Positions 3,961-16,482 of a stretch of 32,000 nucleotides of DNA are shown one piece after another. Position 1 is the first letter of the stretch. Every line of letters starts with the position of its first letter. The notes under the pieces were generated by a model, which saw only the letters and a program-made list of their open reading frames with translations, was not told the origin of the DNA and did not search any database. Source of the stretch: Promethearchaeota archaeon (lineage in GTDB: Archaea; Asgardarchaeota; Hermodarchaeia; Hermodarchaeales; Hermodarchaeaceae); contig JBHLMI010000019.1 in assembly GCA_048938295.1 (NCBI GenBank), positions 17,330 to 49,329 of the forward strand, read 5' to 3'. Position numbers and translations under genes: made by a program.

Positions 3961-5175
3961 TTAGAAGTATACGACATTATACAGGGGGAGAGGTGGGAAC
4001 CACCGTTGAAGTGCATGTCTAGCCCATTCTTCTGTGATTGATAGTTCAGCTTGAAACTCTAATTCCTCTATTGGATGTGTTCCGTAGACTAAGGCTGAGA
4101 GCGCTTGAATGGTAGCTGTTACTACAGGATGCCCTGAGCTTTTAGTTAGTCGTAGGCGTCCCTTTTCTGATTGAAGTGAGAAGATTCCATTGTTCCAGGG
4201 ACAGTTGGCATCTGTGAGTTCGATGGTGACGGTGTCATCTCCAGCACCTGGAAGGTTTTGGACTGCGTTCTTCGCGTCGATGATGCGAACCATCCAAGGA
4301 GTTCTAGCCTGATTAACTTTCAACTGTGCATCTTTGAACCAATGTTCAACCTTGGTATCGAAGGGAGCATGTATGCGGATATTTTGAATTTGGTCCTGGT
4401 GTTGTTTGAAAAAGAAAAAGAGCTTGTCACGAGCTTCTCGAGTTCGCCATAAGAGATCGAGGACATGCATAGTGGAGTGGGTTTCACCTTCGATTTGTAC
4501 TCCTTTAATCCGATACCGGCTTAAAGCTTGGATTTGGCCCTTATATTTGACAAAGACAATGAGACTTTCCTTTGTAAACTGTCTCCACAGAGCATCAGGG
4601 AAGGTTTTGAAAATGAGGTAACCGTGATAGTGTGTAGGACCTATTTCGCAGACAAATTTTAGATATTCTTCTTTGGCATTTCGTGCGCGAACCCTCTCAA
4701 AGGTCCAGTCCAGATTCGGTTGTGTTGCGTCGAATATGTTAAGCTGTTTGAGCGGGGCTTGTACAATATATGCGGTATTTGCTGCAACGTACCCGAATTG
4801 TTCATAGTAGCTTTGTTTAAAGGGATCGAGCATACTGACCGGTTGCCCCTTCTCGTGCATCATCTTGAACCCTTCCTGCATTAATTCCCGCACATATCCC
4901 TTCCGCCGCGCTTCCGGGTATGTTGCAATACCAGCTACCCCTCCACAATCCTTGAGTACACCACGGATTGATTGTTGGAATTCGTGGACGCTTAAAGAGG
5001 AGACCAAGCGCCCTTTTTCAAACAGCCCCAGAGTTTCTTGTTCAATAATGAGATCTAGTTCTTCGCTCTTCTCATCCTGATCTGTCCATTCCGTGTATGC
5101 ATATCGGTAGAGCGCCATGATGGCAGGGCGTTCATTCTTGGTAATTTTCCGAATTTCCTTCATCAGAAGATCCAT
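3961..5175 (-). CDS. Eis-like GNAT acetyltransferase (tandem GNAT plus SCP-2-like C-terminal domain)
   Basis: Acetyl-CoA motif GVAGIATYPEARRKGYVRELM, YYEQFGY, PWMVRIID, D..CPWNNG, and a C-terminal Phe as in Eis proteins; about 400 aa. Confidence 0.85.
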   Translation of the reverse strand: MDLLMKEIRKITKNERPAIMALYRYAYTEWTDQDEKSEELDLIIEQETLGLFEKGRLVSSLSVHEFQQSIRGVLKDCGGVAGIATYPEARRKGYVRELMQEGFKMMHEKGQPVSMLDPFKQSYYEQFGYVAANTAYIVQAPLKQLNIFDATQPNLDWTFERVRARNAKEEYLKFVCEIGPTHYHGYLIFKTFPDALWRQFTKESLIVFVKYKGQIQALSRYRIKGVQIEGETHSTMHVLDLLWRTREARDKLFFFFKQHQDQIQNIRIHAPFDTKVEHWFKDAQLKVNQARTPWMVRIIDAKNAVQNLPGAGDDTVTIELTDANCPWNNGIFSLQSEKGRLRLTKSSGHPVVTATIQALSALVYGTHPIEELEFQAELSITEEWARHALQRWFPPLPLYNVVYF

Positions 5176-5249
5176 CCTAGGCTACTCAGGTACAATGATA
5201 AAACCTGTTAAATCCTTTTTTGCTCCAATATACCAAGCAGTGAGCAACG

Positions 5250-6230
5250 ATGAAGAAGAAACCAACACTCGTACTTTACCATCCTTTAATGGCTGTTGAG
5301 GGGTATCCGGTACTAGCTGGTCGGGTGCAACCAGCGTTTGAATATTTACGCGACACGGGAACATTGGAGTCTCCTCAGGTTATTGTAGAAGAAGCGCCTA
5401 GAGTAGGTGAGGATTTGCTCCTGCAGGTGCACACCCCTGGTCACATTCAGCATGTTAAAGGATCAGGGTATGATTCTGCTTCGCTCGTGTCAGGTGGATC
5501 CGCGGTGAGAGCAGGTGAAGCGGTTTGGGTTGGTGAAGCAGCGAATGCGTTTGCTTTTACTGGCTGTGCTGGACACCACGCTAGTCGTGATTCATCCTGG
5601 GGTTTTTGCTATTACAACAACTCTGCCCTACTTGTCCGACATTTGCAAAAAGTACATGGAGCCAATCGATTTTTCATCGTTGATACAGACCCCCATCCAG
5701 GGGATGGAACCCGTGACATCCTCGGGAATGATGAGGAAGTATACCATTTAAACTTCGAGGCGAGTTTCCGGGAAAGCCTGGATACGGTGACGCAGCGGCA
5801 TGTGGATGTCCCTTTCCCCAGTTCGAGTAGTGATGACTCCTTTGTAGAAGCTGTGCGTCTCCTAGCGCTGCCCTTGGCACGACGAATCCGTCCTGAGATT
5901 ATTTTTTGGAACATGGGCCATGATGCTCATGCGCTAGACTATGGTGGGTTTAATCTCTCGTTAAGGGCATTTCCCGCTATGACCGAGATACTGCTCCAAG
6001 CTGCAGATGAAGTCTGTGAAGGTCGGTTGGTGGTGCTACTCTCAGGTGGCTCTGAGGTATCTGTGGCAAAGCATGCAATATCTGGTATTGTAAGAAAACT
6101 AGCGGGTCTACCTCAATTGCCTGAAGATGTGCAAGATGAGCCTACGACGGAGTCAGCAGCAACGAAGCGGATGGCAGAAGAGATAATCATGAAAGTACGT
6201 TCCAAACTAGGTCTGGATGAACCCAGCTAG
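5250..6230 (+). CDS. Histone deacetylase-family (Zn-dependent deacylase, AcuC/AphA-like) protein
   Basis: VHT..H, GHHA, GFCYYNN, IVDTDPHPGDGT (metal DxDxH) and GHDAH..D. The terminal motif is LSGGS instead of LEGGY. Confidence 0.88.
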   Translation: MKKKPTLVLYHPLMAVEGYPVLAGRVQPAFEYLRDTGTLESPQVIVEEAPRVGEDLLLQVHTPGHIQHVKGSGYDSASLVSGGSAVRAGEAVWVGEAANAFAFTGCAGHHASRDSSWGFCYYNNSALLVRHLQKVHGANRFFIVDTDPHPGDGTRDILGNDEEVYHLNFEASFRESLDTVTQRHVDVPFPSSSSDDSFVEAVRLLALPLARRIRPEIIFWNMGHDAHALDYGGFNLSLRAFPAMTEILLQAADEVCEGRLVVLLSGGSEVSVAKHAISGIVRKLAGLPQLPEDVQDEPTTESAATKRMAEEIIMKVRSKLGLDEPS

Positions 6231-6604
6231 AAGGAATCCCAGGACAAAAAGGTGAGATAGATGAGGTATTGGAGGTCTTTAAGTTTAGATATGAATCGTC
6301 CTTTGCGCTGCTTTTGCTGGGGATTTGGCGGAGGAGCCTTTTCAGGTTGAGACCGAGTTGATTCCTCTTTCTTAGAGAAAGTTGGTTCAATTGGTGGTGT
6401 GGTGCCAGCCTGTGATTGGGATACTGGTCGAGTCATGAGAGTTTCATTTCGGAAAATTACACTCAACGGATTTGCAGTATCGATTTGTCCATCAGCGAAC
6501 TGAATATCGTTATAGAATTGTTTCCAACGTCGAACGGCGTGTTTAACCCAACTGGGAGCCTTTTTGTGAACCAACCCATCAACTCCAAAAGTGATGCAAG
6601 CCAA
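6227..6604 (-). CDS. Possible hypothetical protein (TTG start, low-complexity C-terminal half)
   Basis: The only long ORF filling the gap after the SMC operon; TTG start 57 bp below the RING gene stop; no motif recognised; may be spurious. Confidence 0.35.
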   Translation of the reverse strand: MACITFGVDGLVHKKAPSWVKHAVRRWKQFYNDIQFADGQIDTANPLSVIFRNETLMTRPVSQSQAGTTPPIEPTFSKKEESTRSQPEKAPPPNPQQKQRKGRFISKLKDLQYLIYLTFLSWDSF

Positions 6605-6661: not shown

Positions 6662-7123
6662 TCAGCTAGTACTGCCAACTTTTTCCCAAGTTTTCCATTT
6701 ACCTTGGGATCGCTGCACTAACACGAGGCCAAAGCGTTGCCAGATTTCTTCTCGGGTGAGAGGTTCTTCGGAGTCCGATTCCATTTGACTTGGGTGGCGT
6801 GGTTTCTCTAAAACAGAAGGTCTAGTATAGAAGAGGGAGTCGATGAGGGCACCCACACGACCTTTCTGATATTGATCTTTGACGAAGATGAGGAGCTGTT
6901 CTGTGGGAATATCGGCCACTTGCAAGGAATGGCGGGCCACTCCTTGGCTAAACGAGGGGCAGACGCCACCCATGGTGTTTTGGACAATTCCAAGACATTG
7001 GGGATCAATGAAAAATTGACAACGTAGACATTGGTGCCATCCCTTCTGGATCGCCTCTTCAAGTGTGATTCGGGTTCCGCAGGCGACACAACTGATGCCA
7101 ACGGTGGAGAGATCAAGTTTCAT
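6662..7123 (-). CDS. RING-like zinc-finger protein (Nse1-type ligand spacing), last clear gene of the SMC operon
   Basis: C-x2-C-x16-C-x2-C-x4-D-x2-C-x11-CP-x8-H. I moved the start from 7207 to the ATG at 7123 (MKLDLS...), which overlaps the KITE gene end by 11 nt; 153 aa. Confidence 0.7.
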   Translation of the reverse strand: MKLDLSTVGISCVACGTRITLEEAIQKGWHQCLRCQFFIDPQCLGIVQNTMGGVCPSFSQGVARHSLQVADIPTEQLLIFVKDQYQKGRVGALIDSLFYTRPSVLEKPRHPSQMESDSEEPLTREEIWQRFGLVLVQRSQGKWKTWEKVGSTS

Positions 7124-7697
7124 TCGCGTCTTCCTCCGAATCAGCTGTGGCTCCTGCGAGATACAGGGTTGCCGCAGTAGCGATGGCTTCACGACGTTCA
7201 GCATCAAATTCTAATTCAAGCCGTGGACCATAAGCAAGGCGTCGTGCAGTTCGCGTAATATAGCCCAGTTCGATTAATCGTCGTAATATGCGATCGAGTT
7301 GGTAGCGGGAGAGGCGCCCGCGGGCTACAAGGATCGTTTCGATGTCTTTTGTGGCTACCTGGCGTGGACGACGGAGTTTACTCACCCGTTCCACAGTGGA
7401 AATGATGACTCCCAATACCGCGTATTCAGGATCGGTGAGTTCGCCAGGTACCCCGTAAATGGTTCGAACACAGTAAAGCGTGTCCCGTCCCATTCGATAT
7501 TCAACCAATTCTAGTCCCAGAGGAGATATCTGTTGGCGGAGTAAATCGAGAAGACGGACTAAGCCAGTCTTGTTGACATGAAGGGCTTCTAAAAGATCTT
7601 GCCGTTTGACCCCGATGCTGAGTTGACCTTCCTCATTTCGAAACCTTGCTGTGAGGGCCGCAAAGAGCTGACCAAGGAGATGACGTTGTTCTATCAC
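7113..7697 (-). CDS. KITE-family tandem winged-helix protein (Nse1/Nse3/ScpB-like SMC accessory subunit)
   Basis: 194 aa, two predicted winged-helix units. LRQQISPLGLELVE, LTDPEYAVLGVII, L..LIELGYI and the C-terminal YGPRLELEF resemble Nse1/MAGE-Nse3 KITE patterns. Lies in an operon with the SMC gene. Confidence 0.7.
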   Translation of the reverse strand: MIEQRHLLGQLFAALTARFRNEEGQLSIGVKRQDLLEALHVNKTGLVRLLDLLRQQISPLGLELVEYRMGRDTLYCVRTIYGVPGELTDPEYAVLGVIISTVERVSKLRRPRQVATKDIETILVARGRLSRYQLDRILRRLIELGYITRTARRLAYGPRLELEFDAERREAIATAATLYLAGATADSEEDANET

Positions 7698-7756
7698 CTC
7701 TTCCTCTGTATCCTTGCTAGTGGAAGAGATAGTGTCAGAAGGTATCGGATCTGAGG

Positions 7757-8548
7757 TTATTGCCGAGGAACCTCCTCATGGTTTTGTGCGGTAATGGCAA
7801 CAGCAGCGAAGGCAGGATTCGATTTAGGCGGAGGGCCTCGAAAAATGATTGCTGTTTTTTCGAAAATTGCAGGGCAGATGTTATCACGAATCATTTGACT
7901 GAGTAGATCGAGTTCCCAATTGGTCAGGATTTCTGATAAGGCTGCATAGTTGAAACGTTTGCCCTGTAGCCGTTTTAAGATAGCCGTCCTTCTAGCGTCA
8001 AGGGCGTCAATGGAGATTTGTTCAAATGAGATACGATGTTTGCGCATAGCCTGTTTATCATCCTGGGTAGGAGCGTGGTCCAATGCGACGGGTGAATCAA
8101 CAGAGGGCAATTCGAATGGTGGGATTGTCCGCTCTTGATTAATTAGAAAGAGTAAGGGAGTCGCGCGCCGTTTAATCTCATTGGCAAACTGAGAAATCCA
8201 TTCTTCGGGAGCAATTTCAGGAGCAGCTAATTGAGAATCTCGGTGATGCTGCATTGAAGCGAGAGTATAGTAGAAACGTCCGTCAAGAGTTCGTTCCCAG
8301 GGCGTTTCGAGGATGCGATATGCATCAGCAACTTCTTCACGGTCAACCTCCGCTTCCTTAATCGGAAACGTGTTGTGCTGTTTTAGGGCAACCTCATACT
8401 TTTTGGTCAAGTTCCATAGTGTAATTACAATCCCTTTGGTTCCAAAGGATGTGAGGCGTGTTCGCTTGTAGTTGTATTGGAAGGTGTCGTACCAGGCTTT
8501 GCGGCGCGGAAAGGCACGGAGAAATGTAGAGGTATCATTGGTAATCAT
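7757..8548 (-). CDS. Putative kleisin (ScpA/Nse4-like)
   Basis: Start overlaps the SMC stop (TAATG). The segment VDREEVADAYRILE...LDGRFYYTLASMQHHRDSQL resembles the archaeal ScpA N-terminal helices. A Pro/acidic linker is followed by a C-terminal winged-helix-like segment (IL..L...FNYAAL...LSQMIRDN). Similarity is weak and judged by eye. Confidence 0.5.
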   Translation of the reverse strand: MITNDTSTFLRAFPRRKAWYDTFQYNYKRTRLTSFGTKGIVITLWNLTKKYEVALKQHNTFPIKEAEVDREEVADAYRILETPWERTLDGRFYYTLASMQHHRDSQLAAPEIAPEEWISQFANEIKRRATPLLFLINQERTIPPFELPSVDSPVALDHAPTQDDKQAMRKHRISFEQISIDALDARRTAILKRLQGKRFNYAALSEILTNWELDLLSQMIRDNICPAIFEKTAIIFRGPPPKSNPAFAAVAITAQNHEEVPRQ

Positions 8549-11442
8549 TAGGCTTTCACCTGTCCTTTGATCAGCACTACGTGATGCATAGTTTCTGGAA
8601 TTTCGAGTCCCACCGTGGAGGGGGCCATTAGAAGAAACTGAGGATGAATTAGTGAGTCTTCCTGGGTTAAATCGAGAGCGCGTTGAACTACACTGAGAAT
8701 AGCTGCTCGGCTTGCTTCATCGAGGCGTTGGGTAAATTCATCAATGACATGGAGGGGACTCTTGGCAAGAGTGTGGAGGGCTAAAATAAAAGTCTGGGTG
8801 GCTAGGACCCGTTCGCCTCCAGACATTTCTTGATAGGTCCGCCAGTCGCCTTTGCGGTTAATGGCAAGTTGAAGGTGCAGCTCCGCACGACTGGGTTCAT
8901 CGGGGAATCGAATAAGCAGTTTGACTTGCTTAAGGAAGTGGCTGAGTAATTGGTTCATGCGGTGGTTGAGGGTTTCAACCGTCTCTTGAAGCTGCCGTCT
9001 CCACTCGAGTAGTCTTCGATCAACGTCTGTCATCAGATTTTCTAAGTGGAGCTGACGTTGTTTTAGGTAGTCTTGGAGTTGGGAGACGACTTTTTCCTGG
9101 TCTTCAAAGGCTTGCCGATCTTCTGCTGTGGCGGTGATAGTATCAATCATCGCTTGGAGTTGGATTTGTTCATCACGAACGGCTGTAGGGTTTCGAACAG
9201 TCTGTGGACGTTCTCCCAGCGCAGTGGCAGCCTTGCGGAAGTCCTTAGTTTGTTTTATGAGATGCTCATATTCATCTTCGCGTTGCTTGAGTTCTGCAAC
9301 GAGGTGGTTGATTTCAACCTGACGACGGGATCGTCGGAGGTCAAGGTTTTGGAGTTGTTCGGATAACTTTTGCTGTCGCGAGTTCAGCGGTGATAAGTCT
9401 GAGCTACATTCTTGATAATCTTGGCTGAGTCTGTCGCATTCAGTTTCCAGTTCAAGAATCTGTTGTTGTAATTCGGCTACGCGGTGTTCAGAACCAGTGA
9501 CCAGGGCTGTTCTTTCCTCATCAGAAAGATGAGATGAGTGGACTTGCTGAAGGTCTTGGAGGGTTGCCCGTAATTGGCTTATTTCAGAATTGATATGCAT
9601 GCGGTCTCGCATTAAGCGAGCTTCTTGTTCCCGAAGTTCACGGAGTTGGATGCGTGTGTCAGCGCCGTCCTGAGCTAGCCCCAAATCTTTGAGTGATACA
9701 TTCAGACTGACCGTAACTGGTCGGGGTGGTCGTGCAAAGGCACCGATCCGGAGATAATGACTCGTTCCTTCGCTAGTGATAATGTTGCCATTGAGTTGCT
9801 GAGAGGCATCGACTAGCGTATTGGGGTCGGCTCCTTCCTCTGCGATGGCAGTGTTTACGACTCGACTTAGGAAACTAATGGCATAGATATCCCCTTCAAT
9901 GAGATCAGCAGCCCACCCAATGACAGGTGAAGAGACCGTGGGGCGATCTCGAGCTATCGCGGTGGTGGGGTTTGTTCGGGCGACCACCAAATCTGGTTTT
10001 TCATTTGGCCAGAGATGATCATAGAGGTTTTTAGCCTCAACGAAGACCTCTCGGTTCAGGGCAATGAATGCATAGGTGTAGCGGCCCAATGCCAGTTTGA
10101 CTGCGGTTTCGTACTGTGCATACTCTGGTTTCATACGAATAAGCGTAAAAAGGGGCCCAATCACTGCATCAGAGAGTGCTAGTTTATCAAGTTCAGACCG
10201 GTAACGAAGACAGGCCCGAAGTATCGTCTCTTCAAAATGTGGATACCGTTGGGGTTGAGTAAAGAGGTGCTCCTCCGTTATGGCAATATCTTGTCGGACC
10301 TGAACAAGTTGATCATCGATACCATCCCGATCCTGTATAATCGTCGCTAATTCTCTCTGAATGTCGTCAATTTTGCTTTTTGCGGGTTTCCGACGTTTGT
10401 TGTACCGTTCTGTTCGAGCTAGCATACCTTTGAGTTCGTTTTCTAGCCCTTGTCGATGACCTTGGGCTTGCATCCTTTCATCGCGTATCGAGTCCATGGT
10501 TGTAAGGAGCTTTTCCCGTTTTGCTTCAATCGCTTCGAAGTTCTCTTTCAGGTTGGCTTTCCTTTCGTCTAACTTAGCCATTTTCTCGTTTTGGTCGGTG
10601 AGTTGGGTTTCAAGGCTGGTAAGTTGCGATTGGAGTTGGCTAGCGAGTTCTTCACGATAAGTCACTTCAGCCCAGGCAGCTTCAACATCGAGATCCTTCT
10701 GCCTTTGTTGGAGTTGCTGTTTTTGCTGAAAAGCTTCATAAGCTGCCTTTAGAACCTGAAGGCGCTGTTCTTCGTGGCGGATTCGGTATTCGAGGGGTTT
10801 GACATTGGCTTTAGCCTGTAATACGAGGAGACGGGCTTCCTCGAGTTTTTCCATCCAGTTGCGGAGCCCAGTTTCGTTCAAGAGAGTCTCGAATTTCCGC
10901 CGTGGGGATTGGGAGGCAAAGTGGTCTAAAGTCTCAGCCTCAGTAACGGCTAGGGGAGAATCCCCAAAGAGTCCAGCCGCTTGAAAGAGTTTCCGAATGT
11001 CCTTCCGAGCAATTTGCTGGCCATTCAGTGAGCGTTTTCCATTCAACCAGTAGGATATCCGGTTCGTTTCATCGACTCGAAGTCGAATCGATACAACATC
11101 CGTATCAAGAAGCGTAGACATGGCAGGATCTGGGCTTCTTAAGACACGTCGACCGTTGAGTTGGTAGTTGTTAAGTTCTAGAATGACTTCAGCATATTTG
11201 TTGAAGCGACCGATGAAGGCCGAATTGCGTTGGCGTTGGGCTCTTCGAGATTCAACGCCAATGGCGAGTAACAGGGCGTCGAGAATCAGGGTTTTTCCGC
11301 TTCCGTTAGAACCTGTAATTAGTATGACAGGGGATTCATCGAGTTGGATTTTGGTGTCACGGTGAATGACAAAGTTCACTAGGCGGATGCTGCGAAACAC
11401 GACTGATGAAGTTGATAGGGACATCTCGTGCCTAGTGGTCAT
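8548..11442 (-). CDS. SMC-family ATPase of the Smc5/6-related type (964 aa)
   Basis: IRLVNFVIH; Walker A GSNGSGKT; long coiled coils flanking a hinge (VIGPLFTLIRMK...YETAVKLALG); signature MSGGER; Walker B/D-loop LHVIDEFTQRLD; terminal QFLLMAP with no His switch, as in Smc5/6 (QFILLTP/QYFFITP). Confidence 0.9.
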   Translation of the reverse strand: MTTRHEMSLSTSSVVFRSIRLVNFVIHRDTKIQLDESPVILITGSNGSGKTLILDALLLAIGVESRRAQRQRNSAFIGRFNKYAEVILELNNYQLNGRRVLRSPDPAMSTLLDTDVVSIRLRVDETNRISYWLNGKRSLNGQQIARKDIRKLFQAAGLFGDSPLAVTEAETLDHFASQSPRRKFETLLNETGLRNWMEKLEEARLLVLQAKANVKPLEYRIRHEEQRLQVLKAAYEAFQQKQQLQQRQKDLDVEAAWAEVTYREELASQLQSQLTSLETQLTDQNEKMAKLDERKANLKENFEAIEAKREKLLTTMDSIRDERMQAQGHRQGLENELKGMLARTERYNKRRKPAKSKIDDIQRELATIIQDRDGIDDQLVQVRQDIAITEEHLFTQPQRYPHFEETILRACLRYRSELDKLALSDAVIGPLFTLIRMKPEYAQYETAVKLALGRYTYAFIALNREVFVEAKNLYDHLWPNEKPDLVVARTNPTTAIARDRPTVSSPVIGWAADLIEGDIYAISFLSRVVNTAIAEEGADPNTLVDASQQLNGNIITSEGTSHYLRIGAFARPPRPVTVSLNVSLKDLGLAQDGADTRIQLRELREQEARLMRDRMHINSEISQLRATLQDLQQVHSSHLSDEERTALVTGSEHRVAELQQQILELETECDRLSQDYQECSSDLSPLNSRQQKLSEQLQNLDLRRSRRQVEINHLVAELKQREDEYEHLIKQTKDFRKAATALGERPQTVRNPTAVRDEQIQLQAMIDTITATAEDRQAFEDQEKVVSQLQDYLKQRQLHLENLMTDVDRRLLEWRRQLQETVETLNHRMNQLLSHFLKQVKLLIRFPDEPSRAELHLQLAINRKGDWRTYQEMSGGERVLATQTFILALHTLAKSPLHVIDEFTQRLDEASRAAILSVVQRALDLTQEDSLIHPQFLLMAPSTVGLEIPETMHHVVLIKGQVKA

Positions 11443-11684: not shown

Positions 11685-12005
11685 TTGAGTAAAGATGAAG
11701 GATTTTGGCGCTCAATCATCGTCGATGTTGAACCCCGTCAAAAGGAATTCCGAATCGGCATTGATGAAGATACCCGTGTCGATGAAGTCATCCGCACTCT
11801 TGTCACCCAGGCCCGTGATGAGGGCGTCAGTATTGACGATTGGGCTAAAGCAAAAATCGGGGACCAGCGTGCAGAATTTGTGCTCATTCGTAAAGCCCCT
11901 GAACCCACCAGGTTAAGCCCAGGTGTAACCTTCGGAGAGCTGGAACCAAAAATCACAGATGATGAGTTCTTCCTCCTCGATGTTGTCCCTGAAGTCGGAC
12001 AATAG
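11685..12005 (+). CDS. Ubiquitin-like (beta-grasp) protein, C-terminus ...VPEVG-Q
   Basis: beta-beta-alpha start (SIIVDVE..KEFRIGIDEDTRVDEVIRTL), later RLSPGVTFGEL..ITDDEFFLLDV matching the Ub/YukD pattern L....TL.D..I.D.D.L.L. First gene before the E2; E1 and JAB genes nearby. Confidence 0.75.
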   Translation: MSKDEGFWRSIIVDVEPRQKEFRIGIDEDTRVDEVIRTLVTQARDEGVSIDDWAKAKIGDQRAEFVLIRKAPEPTRLSPGVTFGELEPKITDDEFFLLDVVPEVGQ

Positions 12006-12056: not shown

Positions 12057-12800
12057 ATGATCCGACCAGTATTTTCTACCGAGCTGTTTAACGCCAGAGT
12101 GGAAACCCAGATTCAGACATTCTTTGATACCATGAACAATCTCTTTGGACGACGAGGATGGGATCCAGATCCTCCGCACCGCGAAGATACCGTCTGGAGC
12201 AATCGCGATTTCACCGTTGCTATCATCGATCGATACCGTGATGGGGCGTTTAAACGGATTCGCTTCACTATGCGTTATCTTCCCGGGTTCGTTCGTAAAC
12301 CCAGAAATCTAGAGGATACAAACGCTATACGTTATGAGCATCGGTTTGTCTTTGATTTACCCCGAGAGTATCCTCAGAACATCGGCACTATTCGACCTAT
12401 AGCCGAAACACCTCTGTATCACCCCAGACTAGCGGCTAGTGGAACTGGACATGCCTGCTACTCGGTTCGTGGGGAATTAGATCGTATCCTCGAAGATCTC
12501 CCCTTTTTTGTATTGCTAAAACCAGATCGAGTAGAACCACCATCTCAGTTTCAATCTGACCACGGTCTAAATATGGCCGCTATGGCGTGGTATGAGCAAG
12601 ATACAGATAGAATCGTTGAAACCTTAGATCAGCTCTGGGAAGCCCAGCACAAAGATGGTCCAGCTGCGCCTTCACGACAGGGACGGGTGCGTATTCTTGA
12701 AACCTCATCGACTAGCGGGCATTCAGGTCGAAGGTCACCCCGCGTTTTAGATGAACCAAGTAGACATACATCGGTTCGGATTCTAGATGATGAGAGTTAG
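12057..12800 (+). CDS. E2 ubiquitin-conjugating (UBC-fold) enzyme with a disordered C-terminal tail
   Basis: FVFDLPREYPQ...ETPLYHPRLAASGTGHAC (catalytic Cys134 candidate; HPN changed to HPR), then the DHGLNMAAMAWYEQD helix equivalent to D.PLN.EAA.LY; SD GGAG at 12047-12050. Confidence 0.8.
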   Translation: MIRPVFSTELFNARVETQIQTFFDTMNNLFGRRGWDPDPPHREDTVWSNRDFTVAIIDRYRDGAFKRIRFTMRYLPGFVRKPRNLEDTNAIRYEHRFVFDLPREYPQNIGTIRPIAETPLYHPRLAASGTGHACYSVRGELDRILEDLPFFVLLKPDRVEPPSQFQSDHGLNMAAMAWYEQDTDRIVETLDQLWEAQHKDGPAAPSRQGRVRILETSSTSGHSGRRSPRVLDEPSRHTSVRILDDES

Positions 12801-12814
12801 ATGAGGTACCAACC

Positions 12815-13033
12815 ATGCCGGATTCACCTTTAAAGGAGAATGACACCCCCGACGAGCATGAGGAAGAGCTTGACAAATCATCGAAGGAACCTGAGAGGAA
12901 ATCGCGGATTCAGATTCTCCGAGAGAGAGACATTCCCTTTGAAGAAGAACGTCCTCCCAACTTCTCACCCTACTATTCCATTATAATTCATGGCAAAAAG
13001 AAACGATCTGAGCTAAAGGAGCGAGAGTCATGA
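12815..13033 (+). CDS. Small acidic, probably disordered protein (72 aa)
   Basis: GAGGT site upstream; stop overlaps the next start (ATGA); carries an RIQILRE motif like those in its neighbours. Confidence 0.55.
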   Translation: MPDSPLKENDTPDEHEEELDKSSKEPERKSRIQILRERDIPFEEERPPNFSPYYSIIIHGKKKRSELKERES

Positions 13034-13425
13034 GTGTGCATGGTGCATCCCAAATGCGGTGTGCGGCCTGTGCCACTCAAGTTTCACTTGAAAATGCACG
13101 GAGCCAATGGTGGATTTGCACAGTCTGTGGCAGCTATGTCTGTCCTTCGTGTCGTGCCCTCTTCTTAGAATCAGGGCAAGACACCTGCCCCGGAGCAATT
13201 GTCCGTGGCAGTGAAGCCCACTCTCCCCACTTTACTCGGTTTTTGGGCCCTCGACTGGAATCGGAAAGTCAACCTGCTGAGACACGAAGGCCTGTGAGAA
13301 TATTAGGTGATGTCTCCAGACACTCACCTCAACCACCGGGTGGAAAAGTAGTTATTCTGTCAGATGAAGAGGGAATCGAATCCAGCTCTGAAGCCGACCA
13401 AGTAGGTCGAGATAATGACGAGTAA
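13030..13425 (+). CDS. RING-like zinc-finger protein (putative E3) with a disordered acidic tail
   Basis: C11-x2-C-x15-C-x2-C-x4-C-x2-C-x11-CP-x9-H64; tail contains PVRILGD and KVVILSDEEG; overlaps both neighbouring genes. Confidence 0.75.
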   Translation: MSVHGASQMRCAACATQVSLENARSQWWICTVCGSYVCPSCRALFLESGQDTCPGAIVRGSEAHSPHFTRFLGPRLESESQPAETRRPVRILGDVSRHSPQPPGGKVVILSDEEGIESSSEADQVGRDNDE

Positions 13426-15016
13426 CCTCCCCCTGTCTTTAAAAATCATCGCCCCTACGAGGCAAGATGGTGTTCCTAGAGTTAAAGCCGGTCAACGCAT
13501 TTCTATTCAGTTGCAACGAAAAGGTCAAGCAAAATCGAATATTAAGGTTGACAATGGGGTCGTATACATCAATGATCCCTTCGGGCGCATGGTGAGTAAG
13601 GTCCCTTTTCATTTTGGCAAAACTAATACAGGTGAATTTAGCGTGCCACTGACGGCAAACCTGCTGTCTGGATTCTATACAATTCTCGTTGCTTTGCAGG
13701 AAACCCGCATCAAGCTCGCCGTCGATAAGTATCCCTATCGGGGACCTCCCAACGATCATTATGTCATGGGATGCTTTCTCTTAGAAGGAGGACATCCACC
13801 CATTGTAGTACACAGGGTCAATTATTCGGCGACCGTGAAGAACATTACACGTGCTCGAATCAGCGATGTTCGAGTCATAATCGCTGCTCCACCCTCGCTA
13901 CCTCCTCGACAAACGGTTCTAGATATTAGGTTCTCTCCGAAGGATGGACAACAACAGAATGATACCATCGGAAACCAATGGATTCGATTTCGTCAAGGAA
14001 GCCTTGCTGTGGGAGAATCCTTTACTTGTGGGTACACCGCGCTCATTCGGAATCGCGCACTCCGGTATAATATTCCGCCAGAAACTCACAACTCAACGTT
14101 ACCAGCTAATATCGTCAAGTTCACCCAACCAGAGAATTTCATCGAATCACACCACCACCTCATCAAAGATCTTGCTCGTGATATTGCAAAAAATCATTCA
14201 ACACCAATACAATTTGTACAAGCAGCGATGAGGGTAATTACAAAGAAGATGCGGTATGTTCGTCAAGAGTATGAAAGAGGAGCAGCCTACGCTATCGAAA
14301 AAGGGGTTGGTGATTGCACTGAATATGCCGCTCTATTTGCTGCGTTGTGTCGTGCGAACAAAATCCCAGCCCGATTGGAGGCAGGCTATGCCTTTGATGG
14401 ACAGTCCTGGGAACGCCATGCTTGGAGTGAAATTTGGATTCGGGGCCAATGGATCCCGGTTGATCCAACCTGGCATGGGGCTATGGGATTATTGGGAGTG
14501 ACAAACCGACATATTCCTCTTATCATTGGAAACTGGATGGATACTCGCATCCGCCAAGAATTCAAAGTCAGCTGGTACTCTGATACTGTTGCTCTTGATG
14601 GAAAAAAGGGTGAGCGTTCTGAGCCCAAGATTGAGACGGGGTGGAAGGTGAAACGGGTGGTGGGTGTCCCTGAATCAATTCCTACTCGGTTGAGAGAAGC
14701 CCCCGCAGAATTAGAGGTTAACGTCCCTGATGCTGTCCCACGTGGGAGTACATTGCCCTTGAAGGTCTCATTGATCCCAAAACCGAGTCGTGCCCATCCA
14801 CTAGACCAAATGGTGATGACGGCAACCGTTTCAGATGGCCTCATGGACCAAGTAGTGGCTATTGAACCCTTTGCACCTCGATTAGATTCCCCAGTGAATA
14901 TACGGATGAACCTCCCCATGCCAAATGGGGCCCCTAAAATCACTCTAAATCTCCGCTTATGGGCTGACCAGAAACCCACCGCAACGGTCTGGCAGAAGAC
15001 CATCGGCTTACTTTAA
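13415..15016 (+). CDS. Transglutaminase-like (Cys-His-Asp) protein with Ig/MG2-like flanking domains
   Basis: GDCTEYAALFAALCRA..IPAR (Cys), HAWSEIW (His) and VDPTW (Asp). The N-terminal VYINDPFG...GEFSVPL....SGFYTI resembles a macroglobulin MG2 domain. No obvious signal peptide. Confidence 0.85.
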   Translation: MTSNLPLSLKIIAPTRQDGVPRVKAGQRISIQLQRKGQAKSNIKVDNGVVYINDPFGRMVSKVPFHFGKTNTGEFSVPLTANLLSGFYTILVALQETRIKLAVDKYPYRGPPNDHYVMGCFLLEGGHPPIVVHRVNYSATVKNITRARISDVRVIIAAPPSLPPRQTVLDIRFSPKDGQQQNDTIGNQWIRFRQGSLAVGESFTCGYTALIRNRALRYNIPPETHNSTLPANIVKFTQPENFIESHHHLIKDLARDIAKNHSTPIQFVQAAMRVITKKMRYVRQEYERGAAYAIEKGVGDCTEYAALFAALCRANKIPARLEAGYAFDGQSWERHAWSEIWIRGQWIPVDPTWHGAMGLLGVTNRHIPLIIGNWMDTRIRQEFKVSWYSDTVALDGKKGERSEPKIETGWKVKRVVGVPESIPTRLREAPAELEVNVPDAVPRGSTLPLKVSLIPKPSRAHPLDQMVMTATVSDGLMDQVVAIEPFAPRLDSPVNIRMNLPMPNGAPKITLNLRLWADQKPTATVWQKTIGLL

Positions 15017-15020
15017 CGGG

Positions 15021-15884
15021 TTAGGTATGTTTCCGCTTATCACGACAGAATATTTCTGTACACCGTGGATTTGCCATAATTGGTCCTGTCATGGATTTAT
15101 GCTTGTGTAAGTCGTATTGGATGAACCGACCAAGGGCTGGTTCGAGTCCCTCCTGCCATTGCCCCGTTTGTCGCCATTGCTGTAAACCAGCAAGCATCTT
15201 TGTGGCTTCCCACGACATCACTGCCCCCACAATGGAGGTCACGAAACTAATCATGGGAAAGCGTGGCATGGTGTCAACGAAGAAGGGATCACATCGGGTG
15301 CGTACTTCGTTGGCGATGACATGATCGACGAAGTCTTTACTCCACGAACACACTAAGCACGCTGTCTTAGGTGGCACGAGGACTTCAACAGACACGAAGT
15401 CCTTTCCCATAGCCCCATTTATCACAGGCAAGGGTGACTCTAAGCTGAGATTCTTGGCATTCAATAGATAACGGGCATAATGGTTGTCAACACCGATCAA
15501 CACCAAGTCAACATCCCACACTTTGTCTGGAGCCGCCTGTACCGGTACAGCATGCGGTTCAACCACTGTATCGGTTGCGAGTTCCGGGAGCCGTTCAGCT
15601 ACTGCATCAACTTTGAACTTTTCATCGTGGTCTCCTGGACGAAAGAAGACACAGCGGTTCAAATTGGAGGCTGCTATTTTATCAGGATCCACTAAAACGA
15701 TTTTTCCAACTCCTAACAAGCCCAGGTTCTTACAGACCTCATTTCCGACTGCCCCTGCTCCCACCATCAGCACCGTTGACTGACGAACGGTCTCAAGATT
15801 GGTAGCCCCCAACCAGCGTCGTGTGCGATCATGCTGATCCTTCTCAAAATACTCTAAATCAATCGGTGTGGGTTTCTTCGTCAT
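15021..15884 (-). CDS. E1-like Ubl-activating enzyme (ThiF/MoeB/E1 family)
   Basis: VLMVGAGAVGNEVCKNL, DPDKIAASNLNR, KVD, GVDN..AR, Zn sites CLVC (176/179) and CTEIFC (275/280), catalytic Cys candidate at 198 (VRTRCD). Confidence 0.9.
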   Translation of the reverse strand: MTKKPTPIDLEYFEKDQHDRTRRWLGATNLETVRQSTVLMVGAGAVGNEVCKNLGLLGVGKIVLVDPDKIAASNLNRCVFFRPGDHDEKFKVDAVAERLPELATDTVVEPHAVPVQAAPDKVWDVDLVLIGVDNHYARYLLNAKNLSLESPLPVINGAMGKDFVSVEVLVPPKTACLVCSWSKDFVDHVIANEVRTRCDPFFVDTMPRFPMISFVTSIVGAVMSWEATKMLAGLQQWRQTGQWQEGLEPALGRFIQYDLHKHKSMTGPIMANPRCTEIFCRDKRKHT

Positions 15885-16482
15885 CGTGAGGTTCCTCCTT
15901 ATGGTGTAGCGAGTTATCCTGGAACATTACTTCTCCAGCTGGAACTGATGGATGATAGGTACACCATTGCACTCGTTCTAGCTGTAAGCCGGGCTCATCG
16001 GATCGTGGCCGCAGCATATACACTTTGAAGATCCGGCTGATGGGATCAATCAGGAAGAAGATGTTGCCCTCAGCGCAGAAAGGCGTGTTGAAGAACGTGC
16101 GTAAATCCGTTGAGGAGAACTGCGGATCGCCACCAAAAGGATGGGAGTGCCAGAGGCCGACGACACGAGGAGAATGGGGATTGTTGCCATATCGATCGTG
16201 AAGGGTAAGCCGATATTCGAAGATACCTTCCGGAGTGAACCGGGCATGGGCGATACTGGCTTCTACGTGTCCAGAGGCCCAATCGGTGACACGGATATAC
16301 TTCGCGCCCTGCCATTGTCGACGGAAGCCCAGAATAACGCCCAGGGCTTCACGAGGAGATGTCCCTGTGGCTTCTTTGAGACAATAGTTGAAGATCGCTT
16401 TACAGGTCCTTTCAAAGACGTAGACAGGGAAGACGGTTGGAGTCAATGGTTCTTCTGTGGAATACTGTCCGGGTGTTGTCAT
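15859..16482 (-). CDS. JAB/MPN+ (JAMM) metalloprotease, putative Ubl maturase/deconjugase
   Basis: REALGVILG (catalytic Glu) and VVGLWHSHP...FSSTD (HxH-x-S-x2-D type JAMM motif); overlaps the E1 start by 26 nt. Confidence 0.9.
   Translation of the reverse strand: MTTPGQYSTEEPLTPTVFPVYVFERTCKAIFNYCLKEATGTSPREALGVILGFRRQWQGAKYIRVTDWASGHVEASIAHARFTPEGIFEYRLTLHDRYGNNPHSPRVVGLWHSHPFGGDPQFSSTDLRTFFNTPFCAEGNIFFLIDPISRIFKVYMLRPRSDEPGLQLERVQWCTYHPSVPAGEVMFQDNSLHHKEEPHDDEETHTD

Follow-up and report, generated by a model that had tools for sequence, protein, structure and literature searches.

The window analyzed here is a 32,000-nucleotide (nt) stretch of DNA from a Promethearchaeota archaeon of the Hermodarchaeales (contig JBHLMI010000019.1, positions 17,330 to 49,329; host assembly GCA_048938295.1, 2.52 Mb, 91.6% complete). 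On its minus strand, an SMC-family ATPase, a kleisin candidate, a KITE protein, and a 153-amino-acid (aa) Cys-rich finger protein (6662-7123) are encoded in one coupled operon. An original prediction, made from the letters and open reading frames (ORFs), had read the last two genes as a split form of the eukaryotic protein Nse1, in which two winged helices are followed by a RING finger. The operon comprises the following features.

8548-11442, minus strand: SMC-family ATPase, 964 aa, the genome's second SMC (Pfam SMC_N, 6e-22, and a weak SMC_hinge match; partial NCBIfam SMC_prok_A/B matches)
7757-8548, minus strand: kleisin candidate of 263 aa whose start overlaps the stop of the SMC gene, identified solely from its position and size
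7113-7697, minus strand: KITE protein with tandem winged helices, 194 aa from a GTG start (possibly from ATA at about 7760), assigned by AlphaFold2 model and fold matches
6926-7123, minus strand: RING-like two-zinc finger, residues 1 to 66 of the 153-aa protein, assigned by ligand conservation and fold matches
6662-6925, minus strand: C-terminal domain, residues 67 to 153 of the finger protein, and its stop codon, assigned by alignment conservation

The SMC and kleisin genes overlap by 1 nt and the KITE and finger genes by 11 nt, the finger ATG at 7123 lying 11 nt inside the KITE gene, whose TGA stop occupies 7115-7113. Both ORFs and their overlap are thus present as originally described. In relatives, the KITE and finger genes overlap by 4 or 11 nt or are separated by 16 nt. 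The kleisin candidate is kept between SMC and KITE in every related locus; it returned zero sequence matches in Pfam or the PDB, and an alignment search of the PDB found no Nse4. The genome also encodes a Rad50-like protein and, on contig C39, a canonical SMC with a ScpB gene downstream. Because the canonical SMC-ScpB operon sits on C39, the window SMC belongs to a second SMC complex.

Three-gene archaeal SMC-kleisin-kite operons related to SMC5/6 are known (PMC8665677, Yoshinaga and Inagaki 2021; 10.1101/2024.01.07.573240). Such kite operons have been described in TACK and Asgard archaea, and one Nse1_Nse3-related kite was tabulated for a Hermodarchaeum genome (10.1101/2024.01.07.573240). The window operon shares with them the gene order and the coexistence with a canonical SMC-ScpAB operon. 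The published operons have three subunits, whereas the operon described here has a constant fourth gene, coding for a RING-like protein, in eight Asgard families.

To establish the distribution of the last two genes, a finger profile and a KITE profile were each searched against the same 400 Asgard species genomes. The finger was found in 65/400 and the KITE in 63/400, in the same eight families (here designated f1, f2, f6, f7, f8, f11, f12, and f29). Within families, finger and KITE were present in 17/18 and 15/18 genomes of f1, in 28/31 of f7 (both), and in 11/12 and 10/12 of f12; the counts were 3/3 in f8 and 2/2 in f11. Neither was found in the other families of the set, one of which holds 135 genomes, apart from a weak KITE match in family f14. 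Coordinates were compared by hand for the 62 genomes with a full-length finger. In 59/62, the two share a strand and the KITE match ends no more than ∼60 nt before the finger; of the remaining three, one has an adjacent partial KITE match ∼200 nt upstream, and two have the genes on separate contigs, at contig ends. The order of KITE followed by finger, as first proposed for the window, is therefore kept, and the two genes stay coupled, in at least eight Asgard families; chance adjacency can be rejected because the two genes codistribute one to one. As the fourth gene of the operon, the finger gene is constant and coupled; its product has the features of a two-zinc RING-class protein and is very probably a dedicated partner of the SMC complex.

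Two genomes help to define the limits of this pairing. In Heimdallarchaeota LC_3 (L063:4104-10501, contig MDVS01000144.1), KITE and finger are both kept, on the same strand, 5.3 kb apart, with an ABC-transporter cassette (an FtsX permease and two ABC ATPase genes) inserted between them. The KITE homolog is 187 aa long (E = 9e-33), at a position consistent with gene _20 of that contig, and MDVS01000144.1_20 has been classed as an Nse1-3-related kite (10.1101/2024.01.07.573240). By the numbering of that preprint, the SMC of LC_3 lies nine genes away, and the operon has been broken up in this Hodarchaeales genome. Hodarchaeales also have a second kite operon, Nse3-related, on MDVS01000027.1 (genes 67 to 69). 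The second case is G116, a closed 3.6-Mb Asgard genome of f14, in which an 851-aa SMC-like gene is followed by two ∼220-aa ORFs (L060:800-9700). One of these ORFs is the weak KITE match (E = 2.9e-5), and no Cys-rich gene comes after them. Because the SMC operon of G116 has no finger after it, the finger is tied to this KITE family and not to all Asgard kites. A 390-aa E1-like ThiF gene lies ∼4 kb upstream in G116.

The finger family as a whole consists of 43 representatives among 1.84 billion proteins, and the taxon-named members are all Asgard archaea. A locus scan with a narrower finger alignment returned Hermodarchaeia records only; the family is also present in Heimdallarchaeia, including the Hodarchaeales genome LC_3. 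Natural fusions of KITE and finger, which had been suggested as a check on the split-Nse1 idea, were not found among the 43 representatives, and in each of the 62 genomes that have a full-length finger, it and the KITE are encoded as separate polypeptides. Only two relatives are long enough to be fusions, P0127 (315 aa) and P0121 (397 aa); they combine a coiled coil with the finger and do not score against the KITE or kleisin profiles. In these two metagenomic proteins, the finger is N-terminal in one and C-terminal in the other, and the second ligand of P0127 is His (C-x2-H). A third protein, P0120 (2155 aa), looks like a spurious match, its five short matches all falling on query residues 119 to 144. 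Cofolding of the KITE and finger proteins gave a score of 0.01 against a mark of 0.32, which counts neither for nor against binding.

The AlphaFold2 model of the KITE protein (mean predicted local distance difference test score [pLDDT], 81) contains two winged helices. Structural alignment of this model with VIA against 48,161 chains gave the following matches.

7dg2_A, Nse1: Z 11.9 over 159 residues, root mean square deviation (rmsd) 3.1 (best match)
7qcd_D, a chain of the yeast Smc5/6 holo-complex: Z 10.2 over 160 residues, rmsd 2.9
6juv_B, full-length ScpB: Z 9.8 over 159 residues, rmsd 7.4
8dk1_E, JetB: Z 9.0 over 156 residues, rmsd 4.7

ScpB chains scored between Z 9.8 and 11.2. In a Foldseek search, NSE1 (5hvq_C) was at the top (E = 1.4e-4; TM score, 0.53), followed by ScpB, Nse3, MAGE, and MukE. 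Judged from the model, the 7113-7697 product is a KITE protein whose predicted domain arrangement is closest to that of Nse1, in agreement with what had been proposed for the upstream gene. Pfam scans of 12 diverse KITE members, at E values up to 1, returned generic MarR_2/SarA winged-helix matches only, with no match to SMC_Nse1 or MAGE. PDB profile searches with KITE alignments likewise did not find Nse1, Nse3, or ScpB; this route fails for the KITE, the finger, and the kleisin candidate because the proteins are too divergent.

The genome carries a single KITE of the window type, so that the earlier count of only one KITE gene holds for this type, at one per operon, but has to be extended by the ScpB of the separate canonical operon on C39. 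Where Smc5/6 has an Nse1/Nse3 pair, the archaeal operon has a single KITE, presumably acting as a homodimer. KITE homologs are 213 to 216 aa long, with an ATG start ∼21 codons upstream of the GTG at 7697. In the window (7697-7760), an ATA, directly after the kleisin stop, stands in place of the relatives' ATG, and the true start is uncertain for that reason. Either the acidic, Ser-rich N-terminal tail of the KITE has been lost here or a noncanonical start may be used.

The finger carries the spacing C12-x2-C15-x16-C32-x2-C35-x4-D40-x2-C43-x11-C55-P56, exactly as originally read from the 153-aa sequence. In an alignment of 30 family members (25% mean identity), the positions are conserved as follows, and the conservation of ligands 3 to 7 indicates that the spacing is not due to chance.

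Ligand 1, position 12: Cys in nearly all sequences
Ligand 2, position 15: Cys, His, or Asp, and Asn once
Ligands 3 and 4, positions 32 and 35: invariant Cys
Ligand 5, position 40: Cys in at least 90%, Asp in the Hermodarchaeia clade only
Ligands 6 and 7, positions 43 and 55: Cys in at least 90% each
Ligand 8, position 65: His 9 or 10 residues after ligand 7, or Cys 5 residues after it

The family-wide pattern is C-x2-[CHD]-x16-C-x2-C-x4-[CD]-x2-C-x(9-13)-C, followed by x9/10-H or x5-C. D40 is therefore a Hermodarchaeia-specific replacement of an otherwise conserved Cys. The seven ligand positions first listed for the finger are real, and an eighth, His65 (or Cys at x5), was missing from that list. 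Most members have Pro after the seventh ligand. Because there are eight ligand positions with chemically sensible substitutions, the finger is expected to bind zinc at two sites. The ∼85 aa C-terminal to the finger are also conserved in the 30-sequence alignment (W128 invariant; E126, R138, G141, and W146 in at least 90%), and the consensus of this domain includes a KRxRGKFxTWE hairpin.

In the AlphaFold2 model, the finger protein has a pLDDT of 75 to 92 over residues 1 to 90. The first ligand pair lies on a knuckle between two strands, the second follows the third strand, the third is at the start of a helix, and the fourth is in the loop after the helix. Ligand order and modeled secondary structure together suggest a binuclear treble clef of RING-like layout. 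A Foldseek search of the PDB with the finger gave zero matches at E ≤ 0.001, the top rows being PHD, RING, SP-RING, and ZZ domains. VIA was run on all PDB representatives and the top 543 chains of Foldseek, and its top 50 matches were nearly all RING, U-box, SP-RING, and ZZ domains (Z 3.5 to 5.1), among them APC11, Rbx1/2, RNF4, TRAF, RING1B/BMI1, Rad18, Rad5, and the Prp19 U-box. The Nse1 RING scored Z 3.6, below many other RINGs, and the Nse2 SP-RINGs scored Z 4.2 to 4.4 (2yu4, 4.4; 7qcd_C, 4.2). The matches obtained with the model agree on the class of the finger, though not strongly, and do not single out Nse1. A fold search of the Swiss-Prot part of the AlphaFold database gave mostly RING proteins (SLX1, Hakai, RNF138, and MMS21), all at E > 0.1, and no Nse1; in an ESM Atlas feature search, the best match was below 0.9.

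At the sequence level, scans of the single proteins against Pfam, NCBIfam, and PADLOC gave just weak matches, to MarR for the KITE and to C1 for the finger. When 30 finger members were scanned, the subthreshold Pfam matches were mostly to the RING clan, with B-box, FYVE, and C1 also represented, and the zf-RING-like model of Nse1 was absent from the families listed. The designation of the downstream gene as a RING is supported by the weak match of its model to the RING/U-box class; no Pfam RING model reaches threshold. Taken together, ligands and model make a two-zinc RING-class fold likely for the finger.

Divergently from the SMC operon runs a second operon, from a ubiquitin-like protein (Ubl) candidate to a transglutaminase, with two further genes beyond it.

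11685-12005, plus strand: Ubl candidate, 106 aa, ending in ...VGQ; no Pfam match
12057-12800, plus strand: E2-like protein, 247 aa, with invariant LPRxYP, H122-P123-R124, and C134 (the sole invariant Cys); no Pfam match
12815-13033, plus strand: 72-aa protein, position kept and sequence weakly conserved in Heimdall-type loci
13030-13425, plus strand: paralogous RING-like finger, 131 aa (BLASTP against the 153-aa finger protein, E = 1e-6 over the finger region)
13415-15016, plus strand: transglutaminase-core protein (Pfam Transglut_core, 2.9e-24)
15021-15884, minus strand: E1-like ThiF protein (Pfam ThiF, 6e-35)
15859-16482, minus strand: Prok-JAB deubiquitinase-like protein (Pfam Prok-JAB, 4.9e-9)

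The second finger has the same ligand spacing as the first, with Cys at ligand 5, and weak Pfam matches to zf-UDP (RING; 0.0016) and zf_RING-like (0.021). In six relatives, the Ubl ends in an invariant VG followed by zero or one residue (Q, I, or N), an ending that fits a conjugatable modifier whose terminal Gly would be exposed, possibly by the JAB protease. In Hermodarchaeia, the whole neighborhood is syntenic, which proves little alone because the housekeeping flanks are equally syntenic. Rearranged distant loci are stronger evidence of linkage. In an Asgardarchaeia contig, f2, and f12 (Heimdall-type loci), SMC, kleisin, KITE, finger, JAB, and E1 lie in this order on one strand; in f12, the row goes on with Ubl, E2, and the 72-aa protein and, a few kilobases later, the second finger and the transglutaminase. 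In four further loci, representing three lineages, the finger gene is immediately followed by the E1 gene, and the JAB gene follows the finger in other lineages. The E2-like family was found in 32/400 Asgard genomes, all of them in the finger-bearing families f1, f2, f11, and f12. In 20/32, the E2-like gene is 2 to 6 kb from the finger on the same contig; the others are fragmented assemblies or have the genes at contig ends. In half of the finger lineages, the SMC operon is thus linked to a private Ubl conjugation cassette. Canonical UQ_con E2s are held by the tested f6 and f7 genomes and by the host genome, which therefore has a second, conventional Asgard ubiquitin-type system besides the window cassette. 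Two of the canonical UQ_con matches lie close together on host contig C53 (3704-5989).

On balance, we favor the view that the finger protein is a fourth subunit of the SMC complex, with a RING-class finger that recruits an E2, and that it resembles Nse1 in the way it works. The window would then hold a second, SMC5/6-related archaeal SMC operon, made up of SMC, kleisin candidate, and Nse1/Nse3-like KITE, whose last coupled gene supplies a dedicated fourth partner with an N-terminal RING/U-box-fold finger (∼65 aa) and a C-terminal domain (∼85 aa). The protein would be tethered to the KITE-kleisin-SMC module by its C-terminal domain, and the finger would recruit a charged E2, either the E2-like enzyme of the neighboring cassette or, in lineages without the cassette, a canonical UQ_con E2. 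The complex or nearby proteins on DNA could then be modified, as they are by the Nse1 RING in eukaryotic SMC5/6. The E3 or E2-recruiting role in particular is advanced tentatively, its chances being put slightly below even.

Several results weigh against this view. When the window SMC was compared with the PDB by phmmer, prokaryotic Smc came first, and Smc3, Smc4, Smc5, and Smc6 were all matched at ∼1e-7 to 1e-9, so that these ranks do not discriminate an SMC5/6 affinity. The model of the C-terminal domain is of low confidence (pLDDT < 50). A cross-brace topology of the finger (pairs 1 and 3, pairs 2 and 4) is suggested by ligand order and secondary structure in a model that has no metal sites. 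All structural Z scores of the finger are ≤5.1, in a range that VIA calls common. Against the curated RING profiles of Pfam, the 30 finger members gave subthreshold matches throughout (zf-RING_UBOX, 1.9e-4; zf-C3HC4, 1e-3; zf-RING_4 in 4/30), and a PDB profile search with the finger alignment found no RING chain. Finally, f6, f7, f8, and f29 keep the four-gene SMC operon without a dedicated E2, for which reason the core role of the finger may not be conjugation.

The last point leads to the possibility that the finger protein is a noncatalytic zinc module, a PHD-, ZZ-, or B-box-like subunit with a structural or reader function that binds DNA, the Ubl, or a protein tail and stabilizes or targets the SMC complex without E3 activity. 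Besides the four finger-bearing families that have no dedicated E2 cassette, it would account for the presence of PHD, ZZ, B-box, FYVE, and C1 among the weak matches and for the conserved basic motif KRxRGKF in the C-terminal hairpin, and there is a precedent in the Nse1 RING, which was first reported as structural, stabilizing the Nse1/3/4 subcomplex (PMC8750328). However, E2-binding RING or U-box domains make up most of the fold matches, the Ubl-E2 operon includes a paralog of the finger, and the Ubl cassette occurs nowhere but next to this SMC operon. We consider a purely noncatalytic role unlikely.

A different question is whether the KITE and the RING-like gene are the unfused, direct ancestors of Nse1, joined in the Asgard ancestor of eukaryotes into a protein with two winged helices and a RING. 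If so, an SMC5/6-type complex, a RING-type ligase, and a dedicated Ubl cascade would already have been present in Asgard archaea (Hodarchaeales/Heimdall), and the RING of Nse1 would have been inherited and not invented by eukaryotes. The likeness is one of arrangement: Nse1 is the nearest match of the KITE fold (Z 11.9), a two-zinc RING-class finger comes next in the same N-to-C order, encoded by a translationally coupled gene, and the first six ligands, C-x2-C...C-x2-C-x4-X-x2-C, have the C4-x-C spacing of the C4HC3 variant RING. The family also occurs in Heimdallarchaeia, including LC_3 (Hodarchaeales), the lineage nearest eukaryotes. The Nse1 RING itself is a C4HC3 variant that ends in C-x2-C (PMC8750328).

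The differences concern the finger. Its ligand spacing, described earlier as the same core spacing as that of Nse1, is generic to PHD and C4HC3 variant RING fingers and carries no Nse1 signature. The likeness of the ligands themselves does not hold either: where Nse1 has His as the fifth ligand, the finger has Cys (the ancestral state) or Asp, and instead of C-x2-C its last pair reads C-x9/10-H or C-x5-C. The sequence searches gave no homology of the finger to the Nse1 RING, and in structure the Nse1 RING ranks lower than many unrelated RINGs. KITE and finger are on two polypeptides and Nse1 is one, no fused intermediate was found, the two LC_3 genes are separated by the inserted ABC transporter, and the finger protein has an extra ∼85-aa C-terminal domain that Nse1 does not have. 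Since PHD and other C4HC3 fingers have this spacing too, a RING could equally well have been recruited independently. Direct ancestry of Nse1, and with it the inheritance of its RING from Asgard archaea, is therefore quite improbable in our estimate.

The split-Nse1 reading as a whole is partly supported; the fusion of KITE and finger into Nse1, and the correspondence of the unfused KITE to Nse3, are hypotheses. What we propose instead is that the finger works in an arrangement of the Nse1 type yet lies outside the Nse1 RING family by every defining feature tested, the E3 role being held as tentatively as stated above. The conserved pairing of KITE and finger hints at a partnership of SMC5/6 and RING that is older than eukaryotes, although an origin of Nse1 by fusion is not proven.

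That the operon and its Ubl cassette form an antiplasmid or antivirus module, Wadjet- or Lamassu-like with a Bil- or CBASS-type Ubl arm, and do not serve chromosome maintenance is quite unlikely: weak PADLOC matches (SMC to LmuB and JetC, E1 to CBASS E1-E2 and BilD, JAB to CBASS-type JAB), the JetB match of the KITE, and the ability of eukaryotic SMC5/6 to restrict episomal DNA point that way, but PADLOC gave zero matches for the KITE, kleisin, both fingers, Ubl, E2, and transglutaminase, the operon is near-universal within families (17/18, 28/31, and 11/12) and not patchy, its flanks are housekeeping genes in conserved synteny, and it encodes no JetD- or LmuA-like nuclease. Wadjet (JetABCD) and MukBEF do resemble the operon in combining SMC ATPase, kleisin, and KITE, and JetB and MukE are among the fold matches; in the window, a RING-like finger and a Ubl cassette occur instead of a JetD-type nuclease, and the non-SMC subunits have no PADLOC match.

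Another RING-class finger on the SMC5/6 complex is that of Nse2/Mms21, which scores against the finger model at least as well as the Nse1 RING does. An SP-RING coordinates a single zinc, and Nse2 is attached to the Smc5 arm by its helical N-terminal domain, whereas the archaeal finger has eight ligands and lacks a domain of that kind. The cassette, for its part, recalls the archaeal operons of ubiquitin, E1, E2, small RING finger, and Rpn11 known from Caldiarchaeum and Asgard (PMC3082918, PMC5654768), with which it shares a compact set of Ubl, ThiF E1, E2-like protein, small RING-like finger, and JAB protein. It differs in that its Ubl and E2 are too divergent for the Pfam ubiquitin and UQ_con models, its E2 has HPR and not HPN, a transglutaminase and a 72-aa protein are added, it is tied to an SMC operon, and separate UQ_con E2s occur in the genome.

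The Nse1 RING has been called a eukaryotic innovation, absent from archaeal kites (10.1101/2024.01.07.573240). Neither a RING-like fourth gene in a kite operon nor a link between such a gene and a Ubl cassette was found to be reported in the literature searched. To our knowledge, Smc5/6 is the sole eukaryotic SMC complex with built-in ubiquitin and SUMO ligases. With the operon, the timing of the coupling of SMC5/6 to protein conjugation, and the reason for it, become a prokaryotic question. As a small, expressible four-protein system with a conjugation system of five to seven proteins, the operon makes this coupling testable biochemically. It also reveals a divergent Ubl/E2 pair that had gone undetected by the Pfam ubiquitin and UQ_con models.

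Two further observations were made next to these operons. In the region 3961-6604, the finger gene is followed by a 125-aa gene of an unknown family, which has genes for a histone-deacetylase-family protein and an Eis-like GNAT acetyltransferase as its flanks. Several other Hermodarchaeia contigs carry the 125-aa gene and the deacetylase, and one (L008) carries the acetyltransferase, but other families do not. In the cassette, the tails of the E2-like protein (12660-12800), the 72-aa protein (12815-13033), and the second finger (13270-13425) carry repeats of a [RK]-[VI]-[RK]-I-[LI] motif followed by acidic residues, and the motifs of the E2-like tail recur in distant Heimdall-type homologs (GGIKII, IRII, and MRII).

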